Assembly: GCA_947581765.1 (NCBI GenBank)
Contig: CANPVU010000002.1
Coordinates: 123-64,122, forward strand
DNA from: an uncultured Bacilli bacterium
GTDB lineage: Bacteria > Bacillota_I > Bacilli_A > RF39 > UBA660
Direction: 5' to 3'
DNA length: 64,000 bases
Positions 35,112 through 64,000 of this stretch are shown piece after piece. Position numbers and translations under genes: made by a program. The first letter of the stretch is position 1; every line of letters starts with the position of its first letter. Below the pieces are notes generated by a model, which saw nothing but the letters and a program-made list of their open reading frames with translations, was not told where the DNA came from and ran no database searches.

Positions 35112-35141
35112 AAAACAAAAGTAATATATATTGCAATATTA
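35112..35141 (-). terminator. Terminator after the 642-aa membrane protein gene
   Basis: Stem AGTAATAT/ATATTACT, followed by a T-rich run on the minus strand. Confidence 0.6.
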
Positions 35142-37067
35142 CTTTTTACTTTTTTCCATATTTTTTAATAATTTTTGTTTTTCTTTTAAAAGTCTATCAT
35201 AAAATAATTCTTTATAATCACTATACTGCTCATTACATAAGTCCATATATATATCTATTTCTTTTTCATCTAGTGGTTCTATTCTCTTATATATATATGC
35301 AACAACTTCATTTTCTAAATCCACTTTTTTTACTAATTCAAATTTATTAAATATATAATCATTATTATAAAATATATCTATTAAATTAGTTAGTAACTTT
35401 ACTCTTTCAACATCAATCCACTGTTGTATTGGTTCTAATATTACATAGTACTCGCTATTTAATGTAGCAAGTGGAAATCCTTCAGAATATAAATAACTAT
35501 TTGATGATATCTTTTTATTATTTATATTTGGTTTTGGGTAATTAATAAAATATTGGCTATCATAATTGCTACCTGCAGCATATATAATAGCTGTTTTACC
35601 TTTACTTAAATTATCGTTTAAATAATCTACTATTTGGCCTATTTTATCTAAATCATTTCTTCTAATTGGATGTAATCTAGCATTTCCATAAACTAATTCT
35701 AATGGCCTAGTTATTTGCGTTCCATTACATTTCTCTTTTATACAAATAGCTAATATCAAGGTTATTAAAGGAAAAACTATAAATAGTTGTCTTAATACAT
35801 AATTAACAATTTTATTTTTACTTAACGCTAAATATGCAGTATTAAATAAACAAAACATATAAAAGGGCATTAAAATTAATGATTGATGAACTTCAAATGT
35901 TTGAACCGTAGTAAACATTGCCATACTAAGTAAATAAGTACATAGTAATAATATAGAGTTTTTTCTATTATTTTTCTTATATAAACTAAATATTAATCCT
36001 ACAACAATTAAGAACATAATTAACATTCCAATTATAACTAATTGATTTAAGGGTTCATATAGTATACCTCCCCTATTCCAATTAGAATATATTTTTGAAT
36101 AATTTTTAGATAATATATTTTTTATCATTTGATTTGCAAATAATACTATCAAAAATAAAGAACTAAATCCAAATATCATTAAATTAGTAATTCTTTTTAT
36201 AAACAATTTTTTATCTTTTTTCATAATTGTTGATATAAATAAAACTAGTACATAACATGTATAATATGAAACAACAAAATATAAATACCATCTTCGAATC
36301 ATAATAAGTATACAAGTAATTATAAAGATTACTATCCATCTTACTATATCCTTGTTATCAAAATTATATTCCATTGTAAGTAATATTATAGACAGTGCAA
36401 AAATTAATCCAATTATATCAGGTCTACCTAATATTGTACTTTCATGTAAAGATGGAAATATTACAATAATAAACAATAAAAATATTTTAAAAATTAATTT
36501 ATCTTGTATTTTTGATTCATATTTTCTTAATATACATAATCCAAACATATACAATAATATAATAACTGGTATTGTTCCACAAATAAAATAGCACAGATTC
36601 ATCCATTGTATATCTCCTCTAAATAAAGAATAAAATGGATAAACGAATAATAATAAAAATTTTCCATAATCATCAACTAGACCAGTCTTAATTAATTCTT
36701 TATAACTTGAAAACAAATTTTTATTTATAAATCCTAATAACTCTTGCATATTTCTATAATGTAATACGTTATCCCATACATAAATCTTTTTACTATAATA
36801 TATGATAAATGAATATATTAAAAGTGATAAAGCTAAAAATATAGCCAATAATAATATATCATTTCTCTTAAATTTTATATCACATTTTTTTGCTACATAA
36901 ATTATTAATTTATATACAAGTATATTTGCTAATATTCCAGTTAAACCAAATGCTATTTTATTAAGTATTGGAATAGATAATTTCTGAGCAAATATATTGA
37001 AAATCAAGTACATAATTAAAACTAATATATACATTACTCTTCTTATATTCTTATTCACTATTATCAC
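35139..37067 (-). CDS. Large polytopic membrane protein; possibly a GT-C-type glycosyltransferase
   Basis: 642 aa with at least 12 predicted TM segments, a DD motif in an early loop (GLVDDYGKF) and a soluble C-terminal domain of about 200 aa. The family assignment is tentative. Confidence 0.45.
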   Translation of the reverse strand: MIIVNKNIRRVMYILVLIMYLIFNIFAQKLSIPILNKIAFGLTGILANILVYKLIIYVAKKCDIKFKRNDILLLAIFLALSLLIYSFIIYYSKKIYVWDNVLHYRNMQELLGFINKNLFSSYKELIKTGLVDDYGKFLLLFVYPFYSLFRGDIQWMNLCYFICGTIPVIILLYMFGLCILRKYESKIQDKLIFKIFLLFIIVIFPSLHESTILGRPDIIGLIFALSIILLTMEYNFDNKDIVRWIVIFIITCILIMIRRWYLYFVVSYYTCYVLVLFISTIMKKDKKLFIKRITNLMIFGFSSLFLIVLFANQMIKNILSKNYSKIYSNWNRGGILYEPLNQLVIIGMLIMFLIVVGLIFSLYKKNNRKNSILLLCTYLLSMAMFTTVQTFEVHQSLILMPFYMFCLFNTAYLALSKNKIVNYVLRQLFIVFPLITLILAICIKEKCNGTQITRPLELVYGNARLHPIRRNDLDKIGQIVDYLNDNLSKGKTAIIYAAGSNYDSQYFINYPKPNINNKKISSNSYLYSEGFPLATLNSEYYVILEPIQQWIDVERVKLLTNLIDIFYNNDYIFNKFELVKKVDLENEVVAYIYKRIEPLDEKEIDIYMDLCNEQYSDYKELFYDRLLKEKQKLLKNMEKSKK

Positions 37068-37117: not shown

Positions 37118-38896
37118 CTATATCTCATTAAACATATTTAATTTTTTCATTACTTTTATTTTATCTTTATCTTTAATTCTTTTTCTAACTATACCTTCTT
37201 CTAAATAACTACTTTCATCACCACAAAAAGTAGTAAACACCATTAATATTGTTTTTAACAATTCATAATTAGATAATAGATACTGCGTTAAATCATCACT
37301 TTGTTCAATAACATCTATTATTTTTTTTGAAGTATTATCTGATAATCCAAATACTATTATTCTTTCATATACATATAAACATATTGTATTTATAAACATA
37401 TTAGTTTCTTGTTGAGAGGTTAGAAAAATTCCTTTACTATCATTTATTTTTTTCACAATATCATTTATATATTCAACACTCTTATATTCTTTTACATATC
37501 CTAATATTATTCCAACATATTTCCATATCATTAAATCATTTAATTCATTTATTTTAGATAAATTTTTATGATTATAATTATAAAGTAATGTTTTTTCCTG
37601 TTGTACTAAAGTCTCACTATTATACTCGTAAAATAAATCTAGTAATTCATAACTATTATCAAAGAATAAATTTATCATATCCTTTAAAGTATTGGACATA
37701 TTTTCTATTTTTATTTTTAACTCTTCATTCATATTTTTTTTATAGCACAAATACTCATATACTTCAGTAATAATAATATTAATCATAACATTTTTATAAA
37801 AAGACTCGAATCTTGGATCTAATCCTAATGAATATAGCAAACCATACAAGCAATTTTTTTCATCCATTAATAGGTTTTGTATTTCATTATTATCTGCATC
37901 ATTTACAAATTTAATATTCCAAAGTGCACTTTTTAATTTTGAATTTAATGTAATATCATTCATCATACTTTGAGGTTCGAATTTATTGTAGTAATATGGA
38001 TCTAAATTTTCAAAAATTTCTTTACTCTTTTTCGATTTAACTAATCTCCTAAGATCATAATCATCCCCATATTCTTCATAATTATCATATATATTCTCAA
38101 TAACAATAGCTGCACTATTCGCATCATTAAAGAAATTTTCATATAAATCTTCACCAGATTCAACCATAAGTATAAAATTTTTCTCTTCATCTATTAATTC
38201 TTCATTTGATTCTTCTTCAACTTTCAAATATGCATAAGTTAAACTATATATATAATCTATATAATTACGTATCTCATATTCGTTTGAAAAACTTTCCTCT
38301 ATATCATTTTTTACTTTTATATATAAATTTCTATAAAATTTTATATATTTTTGTTTATCTTCTAGTTTATCTTCAAAAATTAAATTCGTATTAATATTAT
38401 TTGATTTCATTATTTCTAAATACATATTAATCAATTTTTTTATTTCATACTTATATAAATTACCTGTATGTATATTTATATCATATCTTTCTTCTATAAT
38501 TTTAATATACATATTTATTAATTTGATAGGGCATAAATTATTATATTTAAATATACTCATTAAATTAGGATTACAACGTATATATTCTACAATTTCTGAG
38601 TCTAATACACTTAAATTTATTTCATCATCATCATCATTAATTTTACTTTCATAATATATAGCTTTTATATATTCATTATACCTACTAATAATGCTTCTTA
38701 GCATATTTTCTTTTTGTTTAATTAGTTCTTCTGTTGATATATTTAACTCATAACATACTAAAAAGTCCCAAGGAGATTTACTGCACAAAAAATCTCTTAT
38801 CATTAATTGATCATTTCTAAAAAATTCTATAACATATATGGAAAAATCTAAAATCTCATCTAAACTATCATAATCTACCATTTCGAAATTGTACAT
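37118..38896 (-). CDS. Hypothetical large acidic helical protein
   Basis: About 592 aa with no family recognised. ATG at 38896 has AAAGGTGA upstream. Confidence 0.6.
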   Translation of the reverse strand: MYNFEMVDYDSLDEILDFSIYVIEFFRNDQLMIRDFLCSKSPWDFLVCYELNISTEELIKQKENMLRSIISRYNEYIKAIYYESKINDDDDEINLSVLDSEIVEYIRCNPNLMSIFKYNNLCPIKLINMYIKIIEERYDINIHTGNLYKYEIKKLINMYLEIMKSNNINTNLIFEDKLEDKQKYIKFYRNLYIKVKNDIEESFSNEYEIRNYIDYIYSLTYAYLKVEEESNEELIDEEKNFILMVESGEDLYENFFNDANSAAIVIENIYDNYEEYGDDYDLRRLVKSKKSKEIFENLDPYYYNKFEPQSMMNDITLNSKLKSALWNIKFVNDADNNEIQNLLMDEKNCLYGLLYSLGLDPRFESFYKNVMINIIITEVYEYLCYKKNMNEELKIKIENMSNTLKDMINLFFDNSYELLDLFYEYNSETLVQQEKTLLYNYNHKNLSKINELNDLMIWKYVGIILGYVKEYKSVEYINDIVKKINDSKGIFLTSQQETNMFINTICLYVYERIIVFGLSDNTSKKIIDVIEQSDDLTQYLLSNYELLKTILMVFTTFCGDESSYLEEGIVRKRIKDKDKIKVMKKLNMFNEI

Positions 38897-38959
38897 AATA
38901 ATCACCTTTTTAAAAGCTATTATATACTATGATTATAAAAATTGTCAAAAAAATGATAG

Positions 38960-40768
38960 TTATTTCCTACTATCAAATTTTTTTCTTTCATTAGTATTAA
39001 GTATAGCTTTACGCATACGATAATTTACTGGAGTAACTTCTACTAATTCATCATCATTAATATAATCAAGACATACTTCAAGACTCATTTGTTTTGGACG
39101 TTTTAAGACAACAGTATGATCTTTTCCTGCACTACGTGTATTAGTTAAATTTTTTCCTTTTACAACATTTACAGCTAAATCATTTTCATGATTGTTCTCT
39201 CCAACAATCATTCCCTCATATACTTCTGTACCTGGTTCTATAAACATAACTCCACGATCTTCTAATCCACCTAAAGCATATGCTGTAGCTTGACCATTTT
39301 CCATTGATACTAAAACACCATTTTTTCTTGTTCCAACTAAATTACTAACTTTTGGTCTATAATCTTTAAATGTATGGTTAATAATACCATATCCCTTAGT
39401 CATAGTCATAAAATCAGTCATAAATCCTATTAAACCACGAGTTGGTACAATATATTGTAGTCTTGTTTGTCCTTCAACTGTATTCATATTTTCCATTATA
39501 CCTTCTCTATTACCTAATGCCTCTATTATACTTCCAACATATTCATCTGGTAAATCTATTTGTACTTCTTCAAAAGGTTCACAAACTACACCATCTATTT
39601 CTTTTTCAATAATTTTTGGCTTAGATACTTGTAATTCAAAACCTTCACGACGCATATTTTCTATTAAAATAGATAAATGCAATTCTCCCCTTCCGGATAC
39701 TATAAATGATTCTGAATCATTAGGTTGTACTCTTAATGATACGTCTTTTTCTGTTTCCTTAACTAATCTTTCTTCTATTTTACGTGCAGTAACTATTTTA
39801 CCTTCTCTACCACAAAATGGACTTGTATTGACACCAAATGTCATTTGTAATGTTGGCTCATCAATACGAAGTACAGGTAATGCCTCTTCTTGACCAACTG
39901 TACATACAGTTTCACCTACAGATATATCAGGTAAACCTGCTATAGCAACTATATCTCCAGCTTCTGCACTATTTACTTCTACTCTTTTAAGCCCAATAAA
40001 TCCATATATTTTTGCAACTCTAAATTGTTTTATACTACCATCTAATCTTACACAAGATACCATTTCATTTAACTTAATATTTCCTCTTTTAACAAGACCA
40101 ATTCCAATACGACCTACAAAATCATTATAATCTAATAAAGCAGGTTGAAATTGTAATGGCTTATCTAGTTCTACATTTGGTTCTGGCATATATTCTAATA
40201 TCATATCCAATATTCTTTCCATACCTGGTTGTTGTGTACTTGGATCAGCAGATAAAGAAGATGTACCATTAATAGCACTACAATATACTACTGGAAAATC
40301 CAAATCATCTATATCTGCACCTAATTCTATGAATAAATCCATTACTTCATCTACTACTTCTTTTGGTCTAGCACTTGGTTTATCTATCTTATTAACTACA
40401 ACTATTGGTTTTACTTTAGCTTCCATAGCTTTCTTTAATACAAATCTAGTTTGTGGCATTGTACCTTCATATGCATCAACAACAAGTAATACTCCATCAA
40501 CCATATTCATAATACGTTCCACTTCTCCACCAAAATCAGCATGTCCTGGTGTATCTAAAATATTAATACGAGTATCTTTATAATTAATAGCTGTAGTCTT
40601 AGCTAATATCGTAATTCCTCTTTCTCTTTCAATAGCATTTGAATCCATTGCTCTTTCTTGTACTGTTTCATTATCCCTAAAAGTACCAGATGATTGCAAT
40701 AATTTATCTACTAACGTCGTCTTTCCATGATCGACATGTGCTATAATTGCAATATTTCTCTTTTTCAT
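38960..40768 (-). CDS. typA: Translational GTPase TypA/BipA
   Basis: Contains NIAIIAHVDHGKTTLVD and DTPGHADFGGEVER. AAAGGAG lies upstream of the ATG at 40768. Confidence 0.96.
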   Translation of the reverse strand: MKKRNIAIIAHVDHGKTTLVDKLLQSSGTFRDNETVQERAMDSNAIERERGITILAKTTAINYKDTRINILDTPGHADFGGEVERIMNMVDGVLLVVDAYEGTMPQTRFVLKKAMEAKVKPIVVVNKIDKPSARPKEVVDEVMDLFIELGADIDDLDFPVVYCSAINGTSSLSADPSTQQPGMERILDMILEYMPEPNVELDKPLQFQPALLDYNDFVGRIGIGLVKRGNIKLNEMVSCVRLDGSIKQFRVAKIYGFIGLKRVEVNSAEAGDIVAIAGLPDISVGETVCTVGQEEALPVLRIDEPTLQMTFGVNTSPFCGREGKIVTARKIEERLVKETEKDVSLRVQPNDSESFIVSGRGELHLSILIENMRREGFELQVSKPKIIEKEIDGVVCEPFEEVQIDLPDEYVGSIIEALGNREGIMENMNTVEGQTRLQYIVPTRGLIGFMTDFMTMTKGYGIINHTFKDYRPKVSNLVGTRKNGVLVSMENGQATAYALGGLEDRGVMFIEPGTEVYEGMIVGENNHENDLAVNVVKGKNLTNTRSAGKDHTVVLKRPKQMSLEVCLDYINDDELVEVTPVNYRMRKAILNTNERKKFDSRK

Positions 40769-40882
40769 ATAAAAACTCCTTTTTAACACTTGACAGATTA
40801 TAGCACATTATAAAAAATAAGTAAAGTTTATTTTATTTCAATTTTTATCTAGTATTTTATTACATTTCTATTAAAAATTATT

Positions 40883-54050: not shown

Positions 54051-54088
54051 TTGTAAAAAAAAAAATTAAGTCATTAATTAACTTAATT
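54051..54088 (-). terminator. Terminator after the alarmone synthetase gene
   Basis: Stem AATTAAGT/ACTTAATT, followed by a T-run of at least 11 on the minus strand. Confidence 0.7.
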
Positions 54089-54716
54089 ATTTTTTACCTT
54101 TAGAAAGAGCAAGTGATACCACATTATCTGTTGAATTACATACAGTAGCAAATGTTTCTAATTGTCCTTTTAACATTTCAGCAATCATAAGATCCTCTGG
54201 TTTATATCCAATTTTATGTTCCAATGATGCCCATGCATCCATAGCTGAAGTTCTAATTTGTATTTCTGTAGGTATTTGATATGAACCAGTTGTAAAATTA
54301 ACATCTATAAGATTTCTAATGTGCAAACTTTGATATCCACTTTTTTTGGGTTCTGCTATATAGTCTTTTACCTTAACAACTTTAAAGTTTTTATTATTAA
54401 GTATTAAATTTTTTATACACTCAACATCTCTTAAAGTTAAACAAACTATTCTTGCACCTACTATATCATGTACGTGTTCTTCTATATTTTCCATAGTAAA
54501 TTCAACATTACATTTTTCAAGTTTTCCTGCAATACTATCTATAGTCTTTATTCTATACTTTTCATTTTGTATCTCATTATATCCTTCTTGCCTTATTAAT
54601 TGTCCGTACTCAATATTAACTATACTTATTTGTGCTTTCAATATATTCAATGCTGCTTCATATATATATAAATTATTTAAAAAAGAATCTCTTTCACTTT
54701 TTGTTAATTTTGCCAT
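54087..54716 (-). CDS. Small alarmone synthetase (RelA/SpoT-homolog synthetase-only, RelP/RelQ-like)
   Basis: Contains DIVGARIVCL, DYIAEPKKSGYQSLH and EIQIRTSAMDAWASLEHKIGYK. AAAGGGGAG lies upstream of the ATG at 54716. Confidence 0.9.
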   Translation of the reverse strand: MAKLTKSERDSFLNNLYIYEAALNILKAQISIVNIEYGQLIRQEGYNEIQNEKYRIKTIDSIAGKLEKCNVEFTMENIEEHVHDIVGARIVCLTLRDVECIKNLILNNKNFKVVKVKDYIAEPKKSGYQSLHIRNLIDVNFTTGSYQIPTEIQIRTSAMDAWASLEHKIGYKPEDLMIAEMLKGQLETFATVCNSTDNVVSLALSKGKK

Positions 54717-54788
54717 TATTATCTCCCCTTTTCGAGCTAATAGTATATCAAAAAAGAATAATAAAATCAAATTAAAAAAACAGAAAAA

Positions 54789-54945: not shown

Positions 54946-56133
54946 CTATTTATTTCTTGAATATTTTTTTATTAATTCTTGTTTTGATAATCTATATGTT
55001 TCTTCAAATTGATGATTACTTTGAAAAAGTGATTTATAATAATTTTCATCTACTGTTAATCCTCTTTCTTCAGTAAAGAACATATATCTTGCATATATTA
55101 AATCTAAACTCATCATTAATTTTTTTGTATCAAATAGTACAATAAAATCAAGACCCTTACTTCTTAAATAATCTATTTTTTCTTTTAATCCACTAAATTC
55201 ATATCCATATATTGTTGGAAAGTTTAATGTCATTTGAATTATTTCATCATCTGTATACCCTAAACTCTTTAATCCATTAATATGATTTAATAATCGTTGT
55301 TTTGAATAACTATATATTGTTGGACAACCTAATGTTAATTTAATAGACTCCTCATTAGTATATCCTAACGATAATAAATCATTAAATTTATTTTTCATAG
55401 CAGATTTTTTCTTACAAAAAACTGCTGGATATGCCAAAGAAAATTTTTTTGACTGTTGTAATGTGTATCCTAGATTAACTAAATTTTGTAACTTACTATT
55501 TATTAAATTAATTGAATATGTAAACAATGATGGATTTCTTTTTTCCATTTTTATTACATTATCATAAGTAAATCCTAATTTTATTAAATCTTCTATTTTA
55601 GTATTTATATAATCTATATCATAATGTAATAACGATGGTTCAGAAGAATATATCTTTCTTACATCATTTTCTTCATAACCTAAATTTAGAAAATCTATCA
55701 TATTACTTTCAATCGTTTCTGTTGAATAACCAAATAAATTAGGACATCTTACTAACATATGTAATATTTCCTTATGCTTAAAACCAAGTATTATATAATC
55801 CTTAACTTTATTGTTAATATTGTCAATGCCATAAGTAAGTACTCTAGGAAATTTACTAATTATTTTTTTTACATCTTCAATGGATAAACCTAAAGAAATT
55901 AAATTATTTATTTTATAACTTGTAGTATCATCTTTACTAGTTATAATTTGAGGACAATTTTTAAACATTTTTATTATTTCTTGATGCGGATAACCAAGTT
56001 CTTGGAAATAATTATATGAATCTATAAATTTCATTTTTAAAGTATTATTTTTTGATTTATCAAATCTATGCGTGCTCATAAATTCATTAATTTCTTGATC
56101 ATTAAATTGAAAATTCTTTAAAAGTTCTCTCAC
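54946..56133 (-). CDS. Helical-repeat protein with about 9 tandem ~35-aa mTERF-like motifs
   Basis: Repeats follow the pattern x-I-x-x-L-x-x-LG[YFL]-x(4)-[IV]-x-K-x(3)-x-x-P-x-[ILV]-[FLY]. Examples: INNLISLGLSIEDVKKIISKFPRVLTYG and IEDLIKLGFTYDNVIKMEKRNPSLFTYS. Confidence 0.7.
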   Translation of the reverse strand: MRELLKNFQFNDQEINEFMSTHRFDKSKNNTLKMKFIDSYNYFQELGYPHQEIIKMFKNCPQIITSKDDTTSYKINNLISLGLSIEDVKKIISKFPRVLTYGIDNINNKVKDYIILGFKHKEILHMLVRCPNLFGYSTETIESNMIDFLNLGYEENDVRKIYSSEPSLLHYDIDYINTKIEDLIKLGFTYDNVIKMEKRNPSLFTYSINLINSKLQNLVNLGYTLQQSKKFSLAYPAVFCKKKSAMKNKFNDLLSLGYTNEESIKLTLGCPTIYSYSKQRLLNHINGLKSLGYTDDEIIQMTLNFPTIYGYEFSGLKEKIDYLRSKGLDFIVLFDTKKLMMSLDLIYARYMFFTEERGLTVDENYYKSLFQSNHQFEETYRLSKQELIKKYSRNK

Positions 56134-59298: not shown

Positions 59299-59363
59299 AT
59301 TTTTCTCCTTCGTTAATTATAGCACTATTATATGTTTTATTCAAATAAAATAGTTAGCATTAG

Positions 59364-59921
59364 CTAACTATTCTTCTTTTTTCTTATTAATAAAGTTAGT
59401 AGTAATAGTACTATAATGACTATTCCAATCAATAATAGAACATTAAAATTATTTGAGTTAGATGTTTTAATATCATTACTATTTTTATCTTGTACCTCAG
59501 ATTTTAAATTTGATGTATCCATATTAGAGTTAGTTTCTAAATTATTTAAACAATTTTTTTCTTCAATAAAACTCTTAGTTTCTTCAGTAAGTTGTGGATT
59601 AAAAGTAATTGAAGTAATATCATATCCCTTTTGTTCAAATGTAGTTTTATATTGTTCTTTAAATTCCTTATAGTTTAAATCTTTATTCAAAGTTGAAAAA
59701 TCCTTTGTCTTTGTAATTACTGATTGTATATATTGTCTAGCCATCAAGTGTACATCATCAAATATTTGTGATTCCAAATCATCATTCCAAGTTAATTTAG
59801 GATTAGTTATTTTAATAGTTACCTTTCCATTACAAATTAAAGCTAATGTAAAAGATCCACAACTTTTATCAAAAAAATACATAGGACTTTGAAGTCCCCA
59901 ATTTATAGTATATTCATTCAT
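59364..59921 (-). CDS. Hypothetical tail-anchored membrane protein
   Basis: 185 aa with a single C-terminal TM segment (VLLLIGIVIIVLLLLTLLI) followed by RKKKNS. GGAGGT lies upstream. Confidence 0.6.
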   Translation of the reverse strand: MNEYTINWGLQSPMYFFDKSCGSFTLALICNGKVTIKITNPKLTWNDDLESQIFDDVHLMARQYIQSVITKTKDFSTLNKDLNYKEFKEQYKTTFEQKGYDITSITFNPQLTEETKSFIEEKNCLNNLETNSNMDTSNLKSEVQDKNSNDIKTSNSNNFNVLLLIGIVIIVLLLLTLLIRKKKNS

Positions 59922-59941
59922 ATAAATACCTCCCACTTTGT

Positions 59942-60268
59942 TTAATATTCATCACATTGCTTACTATATTGAATAGCTAAATCAATTATTTTATTAAGTA
60001 AAGACATGTTATTTCCTATATAATTAACATAATCTAGGCCTACTACTGATTCAAAATCTACTATTGCTTTATTAATACATTCCACTTTTATTTCAAATAA
60101 TTCTAAATAATTTAAAACAATATCATCTATAAAGTAGAAATTTTTATCTTTTAATAATCTATATATTTTGTCAAAGTTTTCTTGATTTAGTGAGTTTAAA
60201 TATTTTTCTTCATAATTGCTATAAAGTAAATCTAAATACGTAGAATTCAAATAGTTTTCTAAAAACAT
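59942..60268 (-). CDS. Hypothetical small helical protein
   Basis: 108 aa, spaced 6 nt from both neighbouring genes. Confidence 0.55.
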   Translation of the reverse strand: MFLENYLNSTYLDLLYSNYEEKYLNSLNQENFDKIYRLLKDKNFYFIDDIVLNYLELFEIKVECINKAIVDFESVVGLDYVNYIGNNMSLLNKIIDLAIQYSKQCDEY

Positions 60269-60274
60269 ATTAAT

Positions 60275-62041
60275 TCACATCCTCTTCTCATTATTAATAT
60301 AATATTGTTCAATTAATTCTTCTAAAGTATTACCATATTTACTTTTCATATCTAAACTACTCATATTAAATATTTCATGTAATATTCCTTGTTCATTTAT
60401 TATTGGTAAATTATTATCTAATAAAAATCTAATCTTTAATTCTAATTCTTGTATAGATATATGACTTAATATTGATATATTTTTATTATTATCTATTCCA
60501 TATTGACTACAAATTTCATCTATCATTTTTTTATTTTTTCTAATACGCCAAATCATTCCTATCTTTGAAAGAGTTTCATACCTTTCATCTTCTGGTTTTA
60601 ATCTTCTTCGTTGATTTGAAATCCATTGTCCTAAATTTACGCTACCTTCTTCATCATATGTATATCCATTATTTGTTTTAAAATTTATTGATATTTCTAA
60701 ATTTCCATGATGTTCATAATAAGTTTTAGCATACTCATACATTTCTTCCCATGTTAATGTACTTCTTATTTTTTTATAAAAATTCATTCCTATTTTTAGT
60801 AATTTTTTATATCTTTCATCTTCTGAATTTAAAGATTTTCGCTGAGTATGGATCCATCTTCCTAAATTTATATTTCCTTCTTCATCATATGTATATCCAT
60901 CATTTGTTTTAAATTTTTGAGGTATTTGTAAATTTCCATAATGTTCATAATATATTTTGGCATACTCATACATTTCTTCCCATGTTAATGTACTTCTTAT
61001 TTTTTTATAAAAATTCATTCCTATTTTTAGTAATTTTTTATATCTTTCATCTTCTGAACTTAAAGATTTTCGCTGAGTATGGATCCATCTTCCTAAATTT
61101 ATGTTTCCTTCTTCATCATATGTATATCCATCATTTGTTTTAAATTTTTGGAGTACTTCTAAATTTCCATGATGCTCATAATATATTTTGGCATACTCAT
61201 ACATTCTATCCCATTTTAATTCATCTATATTTTTAAAACACATTCCTATTTCTAACAATTTTTTATATTTTTCATCTTCTGGTGTTAATTTTCTTCGCTG
61301 ATTTAAAATCCATTGTCCTAAATTTACTCTTCCTTCTTCATCATATGTATATCCATCATTTGTTTTAAATTTTTGGAGTACTTCTAAATTTCCATGATGT
61401 TCATAATATATTTTGGCATACTCATACATTCTATTCCAGTTTAATTCATCTAATTTCTCAAAACGCATTCCTATTTCTAGTAATTTTTTATATCTTTCAT
61501 CATCTGGTTTTAATATATTTCTCTGCCTATTAATCCATTGTCCTAAATTTACGCTTCCTTCTTCATCATATGTATATCCATCATTTGTTTTAAATTTTTG
61601 AAGTACTTCTAAATTTCCATAGTGTTCATAATATATTTTGGCATACTTATACATCTTATTCCAAGATTGAATATTTAAATCTTTTTCTTTTTGATAATAG
61701 TATACATTTAAAGACTCTAATATTTTTTCTAATGATTTTGGTAATTTATTTTTTAAAATCATTAACATTGTAAATAAATGTTGTTTTCTTATTTTTAAAA
61801 CAAATGATTTTTCACAAAGTTGTATTGTGTTATATGTTCTTAAATTAATATCTTTAATAGTTTTAAACTCTTGTTCTAGAATTTTAAGTAATTCATCTTG
61901 TCCTACTATAACTTCCTTTATTTGACCATCTATTAGTACTTTAAAGCCTATATTAGTTCTATCATTTATATCTAACAATACATCATTTTTATATTGTTCT
62001 GGAATAAAAATATCAATTACTTTACCTATTAAAATTACCAT
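60275..62041 (-). CDS. Protein with five tandem helicase-associated (HA, PF03457-like) domains and no helicase core
   Basis: Five repeats of W-x-x-MYEYAKIYYEH[HY]GNLEV..KFKTNDGYTYDEEG..NLG.WI..QR..L..EDERYKKLL.IGM. Starts 23 nt after the uvrB stop. Confidence 0.75.
   Translation of the reverse strand: MVILIGKVIDIFIPEQYKNDVLLDINDRTNIGFKVLIDGQIKEVIVGQDELLKILEQEFKTIKDINLRTYNTIQLCEKSFVLKIRKQHLFTMLMILKNKLPKSLEKILESLNVYYYQKEKDLNIQSWNKMYKYAKIYYEHYGNLEVLQKFKTNDGYTYDEEGSVNLGQWINRQRNILKPDDERYKKLLEIGMRFEKLDELNWNRMYEYAKIYYEHHGNLEVLQKFKTNDGYTYDEEGRVNLGQWILNQRRKLTPEDEKYKKLLEIGMCFKNIDELKWDRMYEYAKIYYEHHGNLEVLQKFKTNDGYTYDEEGNINLGRWIHTQRKSLSSEDERYKKLLKIGMNFYKKIRSTLTWEEMYEYAKIYYEHYGNLQIPQKFKTNDGYTYDEEGNINLGRWIHTQRKSLNSEDERYKKLLKIGMNFYKKIRSTLTWEEMYEYAKTYYEHHGNLEISINFKTNNGYTYDEEGSVNLGQWISNQRRRLKPEDERYETLSKIGMIWRIRKNKKMIDEICSQYGIDNNKNISILSHISIQELELKIRFLLDNNLPIINEQGILHEIFNMSSLDMKSKYGNTLEELIEQYYINNEKRM
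60547..61689. repeat. Intragenic tandem DNA repeat: 5 units of 231, 231, 231, 225 and 225 bp
   Basis: The anchor TCATCATATG recurs at 60651, 60882, 61113, 61338 and 61563. Units starting near 60750 and 60981 differ at only a few positions over about 150 nt. Confidence 0.9.
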
Positions 62042-62064
62042 TATATCTACCTACTTTATATTCT

Positions 62065-64000
62065 TTATTCACTCTTTAACTCAAATAATGCATCTCTTAA
62101 TTCCATAGCTCTTTCAAAATCAAGATTACGTGCTGCTTCATGCATTTCATTTTCTATCTCACTAATTAATGACATCTTATCATGTTTAGACATCTTTGTC
62201 TTAGATTTACTTTCTATCCTTTTATTATTAGTTATTACTTCTCTAATAGCTTTATTAATTGTTTTAGGAATTATATTATGTTCTTTATTGTATTCTTCTT
62301 GTATAGCTCGTCTTCTATTAGTCTCTTTAATTGCCTTATCCATAGACTCACTAATTTCATCAGCATACATAATTACTCTACCATTAGCATTCCTTGCAGC
62401 TCTACCTATAGTTTGAATTAAACTTCTTTCACTACGTAAGAATCCTTGTTTATCAGCATCCATTATAGCAACCAATTCTACTTCTGGAATATCTAATCCT
62501 TCTCTAAGTAAATTTATACCTACTAATACATCATATTTTCCTGTTCTTAAATCCCTAATAATTTCTAATCTTTCTAAAGTTTTTACTTCTGAATGAAGAT
62601 AAGCAACTTTTATATCTAATTTTTTTAGATAATTAGTCAATTCTTCTGACATCCTTATAGTTAAAGTTGTTACTAATACACGTACATTTCTATTTATACA
62701 ATCATTAATATTTTCAATTAAATTATCTATCTGATTCTTTGTTGGATGTATAGTTATTAATGGATCTAATAATCCAGTAGGTCTAATTATTTGTTCTACT
62801 ACTTCATGATTTGTCTTTCCTAATTCATAATCACCTGGTGTTGCTGATATATATATTGTTTGTCCTTTTTTACTTTCAAATTCATCAAAATGTAATGGTC
62901 TATTATCAAGCGCACTTGGTAATCTAAATCCATAATTTACAAGTATTTCTTTTCTAGCTCTATCTCCATTATACATACCTCTTACTTGAGGAATAGTTAC
63001 ATGTGATTCATCTATTACTAAAAGAAAATCATCTCCAAAGAAATCAATTAATGTATAAGGTGTTTCTCCTGGACCTTTAAGTGCTAAATGCCTAGAATAA
63101 TTCTCTACGCCTCTACAAAATCCAGTTTCTTTTAACATTTCAAGATCATATTTAGTTCTTTCTTCTAATCTCTGATATTCAAGTAATTTATTTTCACTCT
63201 TAAACTTAGCTAATTGTTCTTCCAATTCCTTTTCTATATTAACTAAAGCTTTATTAAGTTTCTCTTCCGTTGTTACAAAGTGACTAGCTGGAAATATACT
63301 TATTGTCTCTTTACTACTTATAATAGCACCCGTTACTACATCAAATTCACATATCTTATCTATTTCATCGCCAAAAAATTCTATCCTAATACCTTTACTA
63401 TGTTGATTGACAGGAATTATTTCTAAAACATCTCCCTTAGCTCTAAAAGTACCTCTTTTAAAATCAATATCATTTCGTTCATATAACATATTTATTAGTT
63501 TCTCAATAATGCTATCTCTTTCAATAGTTTCACCACAACTTAAAACTAACATCATTTTCTCATAGTCTTCTTTATCACCAATACCATATATACATGAAAC
63601 ACTAGCTACTACTATAACATCTTTTCTTTTAAGTAGTGCTCCAGTAGCAGCATGTCTTAATTCATCTATTTCATCATTTATAGCAGCGTCTTTTTCTATA
63701 TATGTATCTGTTTTAGCAACATAAGCTTCTGGTTGATAATAGTCATAATAACTAACAAAATATTCTACTGCATTATTAGGAAATAACTCTTTAAATTCAG
63801 AATAAAGTTGACCTGCAAGTGTTTTATTATGTGCTAATACAAGTGTTGGTTTATTTATTTTTTCAATTACATTTGCTATTGTAAATGTTTTTCCTGTACC
63901 AGTAGCACCCAAAAGCACCTGATCTTTTTTTCCTTCTTTAATTCCTTGTACAAGTTTTTCTATAGCTTGTGGTTGATCACCACTAGGTTTATACTTCGAT
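62065..64000 (-). CDS. uvrB: Excinuclease ABC subunit B; partial, with the N-terminus beyond the window edge
   Basis: Contains [16 protein letters not shown] and the C-terminal UVR motif. The frame is open to position 64000. Confidence 0.96.

Follow-up and report, generated by a model that had tools for sequence, protein, structure and literature searches.

The gene downstream of uvrB and its domain layout

The window analyzed here is a whole stretch of 64,000 nucleotides (64 kb) from contig CANPVU010000002.1 of an uncultured Bacilli bacterium (RF39, UBA660; assembly GCA_947581765.1). Near its end, the minus strand, on which the features of this locus lie, carries uvrB followed by an open reading frame (ORF) of 588 codons (60275..62041), fully open in 23% GC DNA, and two smaller ORFs, p108 and p190. 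Only the 3' 617 codons of uvrB (62065..64000) are present, since the gene runs off the window end; it shows the Pfam domains UvrB_inter, UvrB, Helicase_C and UVR and 73-86% identity to related uvrB genes. Between the uvrB stop codon (62065-62067) and the ATG of the 588-codon ORF (62039-62041) lies the 23-nucleotide (nt) spacer already noted in an earlier reading of these letters (the sequence-only reading). According to its alignments, the 588-amino acid (aa) protein appears to be an in-frame fusion of a small ORF, a linker, an array of helicase-associated (HA) domains and a tail, from which a motor of about 440 residues has been excised, because its N-terminus matches an ORF found upstream of helicase-HA genes and the next segment matches the linker that precedes their HA domains.

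Pfam analysis shows the HA family (PF03457) in five stretches of the protein, with 204.2 bits against a cut-off of 28.4 and E=2.7e-61, and no match to a helicase family. Furthermore, tblastn with the helicase cores of two full-length homologues, P0002 or P0082, found no helicase-core remnant in the whole window. The five tandem HA domains and the missing core of the sequence-only reading are therefore confirmed. HA units 1 to 5 comprise residues 127-201 (61439..61663), 202-276 (61214..61438), 277-353 (60983..61213), 354-430 (60752..60982) and 431-505 (60527..60751). Their lengths in gene order are 75, 75, 77, 77 and 75 aa (225, 225, 231, 231 and 225 nt), slightly different from the 231/231/231/225/225 nt first reported.

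Residues 1 to ~70 (61832..62041) are homologous to a separate ORF of 75-85 aa which precedes helicase-HA genes elsewhere, according to BLASTP, local alignments and phmmer. In BLASTP, residues 5-78 align with the whole 81-aa ORF of locus L001 (42% identity, E=1e-14), and the N-terminus also aligns locally to the small ORFs of L004 and L003. The small-ORF alignment stops at residue 68-78 and the linker alignment begins at residue 63-67, and their overlap delimits a junction zone at residues ~63-79 ('...NTIQLCEKSF...', 61805..61855). Residues ~67-103 match the linker segment that leads into the first HA domain of P0082 (residues 444-478) and P0002 (residues 441-478). The remaining linker, residues 80-126 by alignment to full-length homologues (61664..61804), ends with ~23 residues (104-126) that extend beyond the linker of the homologues. 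These extra residues resemble an HA unit at the DNA level no more than chance would allow, and a reading of residues 99-126 as a degenerate sixth HA unit is not supported, since their DNA alignment scores 13 and shuffled sequences average 15.6. After the array, residues 506-588 (60278..60526) form a conserved tail domain which aligns to P0002 residues 926-1008 and is modeled by AlphaFold2 with a predicted local distance difference test (pLDDT) score of 80-91. The alignment of the whole protein to P0002 covers residues 395-1008 with 45% identity, including the ~85-residue tail ('ILSHISIQEL...'), and makes it the counterpart of the C-terminal 60% of helicase-HA proteins. Neither terminal region is unique, as had been supposed: the N-terminal one corresponds to the separate upstream small ORF of a parental module, apparently fused in frame, and the C-terminal one to the conserved tail of the helicase-HA family.

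With Tandem Repeats Finder, the array at 60574-61654 has a period of 231, 4.7 copies and 88% matches. Between units 3 and 4, 220 of 231 nt are identical (148 of 150 in the best 150-nt stretch), and exact runs of up to 76 nt are shared; the other adjacent pairs reach 123-135 of 150 in their best stretch, and the 198-nt unit cores show 79-94% nucleotide identity among all pairs. The term near-identical, used in the first description, fits units 3 and 4 but not the other adjacent pairs. Identity between units is 0.76 within the window protein and 0.64-0.80 within most family members, against 0.5-0.73 between its units and those of homologues, and the units show no orthology by position. Among full-length family members, 27 proteins have five HA units and 67 have six, and the five units of the window protein score as well as those of full-length proteins. 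Five to six units are the ancestral state of the family, and homogenized units together with five or six copies across the family make repeat turnover a property of the whole family. Concerted evolution and copy-number change are thus family-wide traits and not marks of recent expansion in this genome; the homogenization and, among family members, the copy-number variation predicted from the sequence are upheld, but the recent expansion is not needed.

In the AlphaFold2 model, three helices and a short hairpin make up each HA unit (pLDDT 80-90). Confidence is low for the linkers between units and the predicted template modeling (pTM) score is 0.33, for which reason the units look like beads on a string. 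The N-terminal part has a pLDDT below 50 and is unreliable, and MAFFT scattered it over helicase columns. Foldseek matches of the whole model were discarded as meaningless at this pTM, with inter-domain geometry not predicted. A profile of the window units shows a weak match (E=0.049) to 2KTA, the nuclear magnetic resonance structure of the HA domain of Bacteroides vulgatus BVU_0683(627-691) (Mills et al. 2013, as cited in PMC12191111), and a PDB sequence search with full-length P0002 gave no match. Each unit matches PF03457 and is modeled with three helices, and its sequence resembles the solved domain only marginally. DNA binding has been proposed for HA domains (Mills 2013, as cited in PMC12191111), and by analogy the window array may bind DNA. 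Tandem HA arrays are also described in Streptomyces TtrA, a sub-telomeric conjugation helicase, and in helicase-less TniQ fusions of clade-2 telomeric Tn7-like elements (10.1101/2024.11.13.623437), and nuclease-HA fusions exist (PMC12191111). These systems resemble the window protein in having HA arrays tied to mobile DNA, either attached to the helicase (TtrA) or detached from it (TniQ), and TniQ-HA shows that helicase-less arrays are able to act as DNA-recognition modules (10.1101/2024.11.13.623437). However, they belong to another phylum and have other partner domains, and the telomere or Tn7 context is absent in the window.

The three-gene module in other genomes

About 1,088 database proteins matched in the homologue search, and architectures were taken from the best 120. 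Almost all of these 120 have 940-1027 aa, with an N-terminal ResIII/DEAD helicase followed by HA repeats. Short homologues without a helicase (P0054, P0070, P0080, P0084 and others) were considered as a possible stand-alone family and rejected as contig-end fragments, because their sequences begin mid-repeat or mid-helicase. Firmicute/Bacilli helicase-HA proteins such as P0082, P0002 and P0006 (one has the NCBI name 'Helicase associated domain protein') show 45-58% identity to the window protein over the linker, HA array and tail, and share with it 5-6 HA units of 74-78 aa and a partner gene of ~105 aa downstream. In contrast, the window protein is devoid of the ~440-residue superfamily 2 (SF2) motor (ResIII/DEAD, Walker A GTGKS), has the normally separate small ORF as its own N-terminus, and lies behind uvrB without its own promoter.

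Every locus examined (L001-L005, L086-L089 and L101-L104) shows the same triad: an ORF of 75-85 aa which abuts or overlaps the start codon of the helicase gene, the helicase-HA gene, and an ORF of 105-109 aa. The neighborhoods of the triad differ between loci, in contexts unrelated to uvrB. The third gene is represented in the window by p108 (59942..60268), which starts 6 nt after the fusion stop codon and is 47-51% identical to the 105-106-aa ORFs that follow the helicase-HA genes of L001-L005, and 59-68% to those of L086-L089 and L102-L104. It has 103 homologues, nearly all of 98-123 aa (one 93-aa partial match), and no Pfam domain. AlphaFold2 predicts an all-alpha protein of 9 helices (pLDDT 93.6). 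The best Foldseek match was MTERF1 (TMq 0.56-0.63), with E values of 3-7, and hhalign against the mTERF protein of the window gave a probability of 1.9%; assignment of p108 to the mTERF family was rejected, and its modeled resemblance to MTERF1 is weak.

The triad of L086-L089 lies beside genes for a large serine recombinase, TnpV and a relaxase. In these loci (e.g., L087:5985-16916), a SLFN_AlbA_2-HATPase_c_4-HTH gene overlaps the small ORF of the small-ORF/helicase-HA/p109 triad by 4 nt and is accompanied by a gene for a divergent 729-aa AAA_13 ATPase, so that the Schlafen/AlbA_2-HTH gene and the ATPase are on one side of the triad and the relaxase, TnpV and recombinase on the other. This layout resembles a Tn4451-like mobilizable element with defence-island-like cargo. 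L104:2463-9073 contains tandem HA-array genes, one encoding a 1151-aa HA protein and then a small ORF with a 951-aa helicase-HA gene, so that duplication or stacking of the module is possible. Furthermore, the module copy of L102, from an unrelated metagenome, is split into three ORFs, which suggests recurrent decay of the module.

An exhaustive phmmer search with the small-ORF part gave 33 family representatives, which are stand-alone ORFs of 30-160 aa with the exception of two oddities, P0145 (weak integrase-core match) and P0162 (EF-hand repeat protein). Neither of the two has an HA hit in Pfam, and none was found among the four longest representatives scanned. As no other representative of the small-ORF family is fused to HA domains, the fusion seems to be exceptional in the sequences compared. 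An exact-protein look-up found it on no contig besides that of the window, a word-indexed search with residues 1-126 found one 85-aa ORF and no second fusion, and a scan of JGI metagenomes found intact modules only.

PADLOC-DB v2 gave a 51-residue match of P0002 to mREase_IV (E=7e-8), otherwise noise, and no match for the small ORF, p105, p108 or p190. A plausible view of the intact module is that of an SF2 translocase tethered to DNA and assisted by two small subunits, with mobile elements as its carriers. The analysis thereby delineates, as a by-product, a widespread uncharacterized gut-Firmicute triad, which is a candidate for functional study because it is found on mobilizable elements and matches no curated defence or NCBIfam family.

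The site downstream of uvrB, recurrence and constraint

The site was compared across WhiA-anchored loci of 80 species representatives, which place the organism among uncultured, very low-GC gut Bacilli; the nearest WhiA among them is 77% identical, and 42 of the loci include uvrB. In 29 of the 42 loci, uvrB is followed within 200 nt by a holin-4-family gene or lgt, and then by yvcK and whiA. Twelve have a single unrelated gene in the spacer, encoding a radical-SAM protein, an RdgB-like protein, an AAA ATPase or others, and the remaining one (L078) shows a 226-nt spacer without an ORF of 120 aa or more. Neither uvrA nor an HA gene directly follows uvrB in any of the 42, and HA, p108 and p190 genes are absent from all 80 loci.

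In the uvrBA operon of the Bacillus subtilis type, uvrA follows uvrB, and the sequence-only reading had placed the gene in the position of uvrA. This does not hold for the lineage. No UvrA-like ORF (at least 700 aa with UvrA motifs) was found within ~10 kb of whiA in the 80 loci, nor within ~5.7 kb upstream of uvrB in L007 and L010. The window also has no uvrA: its largest ORF is SecA (851 aa), and a six-frame search for UvrA motifs (Walker A GxSGSGKS and the LSGGE/Q signature) was negative. The window protein has no ABC Pfam hit, and its only likeness to UvrA is the position directly downstream of uvrB. A uvrA replacement was therefore rejected, as was the alternative of a uvrA just beyond the gene, where relatives carry holin-4/lgt or a single unrelated cargo gene. 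Because relatives hold these genes there and never uvrA, the slot where uvrA would be expected appears to be absent in this lineage, and the site is best described, from the loci compared, as a variable cargo slot.

With respect to relatives, the window shows a lineage-specific insertion of ~2.73 kb (~59330..62064) in the spacer between uvrB and holin-4/lgt, which contains the fusion gene, p108, p190 and a terminator. Its extent is given by L006 and L007, in which the uvrB stop leads straight to the conserved promoter and ribosome-binding site (RBS) of the holin-4 gene, 'AATAGTGCTATAAT' ('AATAGTGCTATAAT...GGAG' in L006); the window copy of this sequence is at 59316-59329. The only candidate target-site duplication at the insertion ends is 'AATA', which is uninformative in DNA of 23% GC. 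The ORF p190 (59364..59936) is lineage-specific and not part of the conserved module. It has no family match in Pfam, PADLOC or PHROG and shows a C-terminal transmembrane tail, hydrophobic with a basic end, and a weak hit to the LPXTG-anchor model, with the LPXTG motif absent. The inserted genes are closed by a terminator-like hairpin, TAGTTAGC-TAAT-GCTAACTA followed by a T-run (59349..59372). A promoter-like site for the holin-4-family and lgt genes (TTGAAT, 17-nt spacer, TG-n-TATAAT; 59316..59344) comes next, with its -10 element and RBS conserved in relatives, and then the gene for the holin-4-family membrane protein (PF04020, 58864..59298), usually next to uvrB in this lineage. The end of this 'phage holin 4' gene overlaps the start of lgt by 4 nt. 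Since it is conserved and follows uvrB in most of the clade, it is a core chromosomal gene here and not a prophage holin.

The insertion is real, since its 3' part recurs, exactly or nearly so, in at least 10 independent assemblies (L091-L100), with the 3' end of the fusion gene, p108, p190 and holin-4/lgt/yvcK; L091, from an independent sample, is 100% identical over 4,293 nt. All these contigs stop inside the HA array, at window positions 60474-60915, as would be expected of 225-231-nt repeats with exact runs of up to 76 nt in common. No short-read assembly of this species gets through such an array intact, and repeat numbers taken from metagenome-assembled genomes are therefore unreliable. 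The sister lineage L090, with core proteins 86-95% identical, has the HA tail and a p108 homologue, p107, at the same site, with the same promoter and the same terminator hairpin after p107, and no p190. The insertion therefore predates the split between the two lineages. Synonymous divergence (pS) between L090 and the window is ~0.18 for the HA tail and p108 and 0.11 for the mTERF gene described below, compared to 0.31-0.43 for holin-4, lgt, yvcK and whiA, which hints that the two lineages exchanged the accessory genes more recently. In L096 (1570-1903) and L097, of the same species, the match to the window stops at 59347, just past the terminator hairpin. In its place a transposase-like ORF begins, 'MITINKNIQSEILMTTMEELVPEDSLFRKIDKYIDF...', which may resemble IS1182/IS5-type N-termini, and the contig then ends; this suggests an insertion sequence polymorphism in the uvrB/holin-4 spacer of some strains.

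Selection was estimated from same-species strains and L090 as the ratio of nonsynonymous to synonymous variation (pN/pS); counts are small and the value of the fusion gene refers to its 3' part. It is 0.34-0.57 for the fusion gene, 0.55-0.95 for p190, 0-0.29 for p108, and 0-0.19 for holin-4, lgt, yvcK, whiA and mTERF. Constraint on the fusion gene is relaxed in relation to its neighbors, yet its evolution is not neutral, and p190 evolves almost neutrally.

Origin of the fusion gene and other features of the window

We consider it probable that the fusion gene is a motor-less relic of a horizontally acquired three-gene helicase-HA module. The module would first have landed in the short spacer that separates uvrB from the holin-4-family/lgt genes, and an internal deletion of ~1.3 kb would then have removed the whole helicase core (~440 residues) along with the end of the small ORF, joining the small ORF in frame to the pre-HA linker and producing a 588-aa protein with five three-helix HA units. 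The gene would also have lost its own promoter: module cassettes elsewhere show AT-rich promoter-like sequences upstream, in contrast to the 23-nt spacer, where no promoter-like site was found, so any expression is probably by read-through from uvrB. If made, the protein could still bind DNA multivalently through the HA array, as the HA literature would suggest, and would probably still pair with p108, but translocation or unwinding would be impossible. The gene is most likely a slowly decaying relic under relaxed constraint. Helicase-HA proteins, the HA domain and helicase-less HA arrays are known already, and this fusion is a unique, probably degenerate variant.

Several observations weigh against this explanation. 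Only the window contig shows the 5' half of the gene with the fusion junction and a count of five units, and no close relative with an intact module at the uvrB site was found that would document insertion followed by deletion. PADLOC, PHROGs and NCBIfam gave nothing informative on the module proteins that would assign a role to the intact module. Moreover, the pN/pS below 1 of the fusion gene, its 588 codons still open in 23% GC DNA, the good conservation of p108 and the persistence of the HA tail and p108 pair through the split from L090 all fit some retained function. These same features could indicate that the fusion and p108 were domesticated, kept by selection for a new motor-free role as a DNA-binding factor, possibly a regulator, a decoy or dominant-negative form that counters newly arriving module copies, or an adaptor targeting the nucleoid or mobile genetic elements. 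The HA units, which score like those of full-length proteins, and the helicase-less arrays that work as modules in TniQ-HA (10.1101/2024.11.13.623437) and in nuclease-HA fusions (PMC12191111) agree with this. Nevertheless, we regard domestication as unlikely: the HA gene has a pN/pS 3-5 times as high as its neighbors and no promoter of its own, and its architecture is unique among the 33 small-ORF representatives and ~1,000 HA hits. A metagenomic mis-assembly across the repeats, which would have created the fusion, the five-copy array or both, is very unlikely. Breaks of all other assemblies in the array, the single contig with the exact 588-aa protein and the exact runs shared by units 3 and 4 would fit it and make an error in repeat number plausible. 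However, the same is not plausible for the junction, because it is located in unique sequence ~150 nt before the repeats start, and collapse would not be expected there; furthermore, the reading frame is preserved, and L091 reproduces the 3' end, p108 and flanks at 100%.

The promoterless spacer, which suggests co-transcription with uvrB, the absence of uvrA from the window and the proposed DNA binding of HA domains (Mills 2013, as cited in PMC12191111) could also be read as signs of a nucleotide-excision-repair accessory, in which the HA array would be a DNA-binding or damage-locating partner of UvrB in the usual Firmicute uvrA slot. This is scarcely credible and is largely refuted by the comparative context, since the 42 relatives with the same uvrB have no such gene and never show uvrA adjacent to it, and the homologues are found in mobile or variable contexts unrelated to uvrB. 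ABC ATPase features are absent, a search for LexA (Cheo-type) boxes gave matches at chance level only, and constraint is relaxed. The fusion gene has nothing to do with the role of UvrA, and the question of a uvrA replacement is answered in the negative by an ordinary variable cargo slot with a decayed mobile gene. It is highly improbable that the deletion was adaptive, with the HA array and p108, co-transcribed with uvrB, domesticated as a multivalent DNA tether for which UvrB or another host helicase supplies the motor, in a reduced-genome lineage of gut Bacilli with uvrA unlinked to uvrB; if true, host DNA repair or surveillance would have recruited a helicase accessory of mobile-element origin. 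As a motor-less relic, the gene would be a natural allele that keeps the HA array, tail and partner, and could help to separate the DNA-binding and translocation functions of the module.

Two other regions of the window are of note. The 642-aa ORF at 35139-37067 (-) has no NCBIfam match at E<=0.001 and is flanked by large ORFs at 37118-38905 and 38960-40789 (TypA/BipA). Between whiA and nrnA, the window contains a gene encoding a 395-aa mTERF-family protein (54946-56133 (-); Pfam mTERF, E=6.9e-43) and a small RelA/SpoT-type alarmone-synthetase-like gene (54087-54770 (-)). In many relatives (e.g., L006), whiA and nrnA are direct neighbors. A tblastn search of the 80 related loci gave no match to the mTERF gene, which is 95% identical in L090. 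This region is a second lineage-specific insertion.

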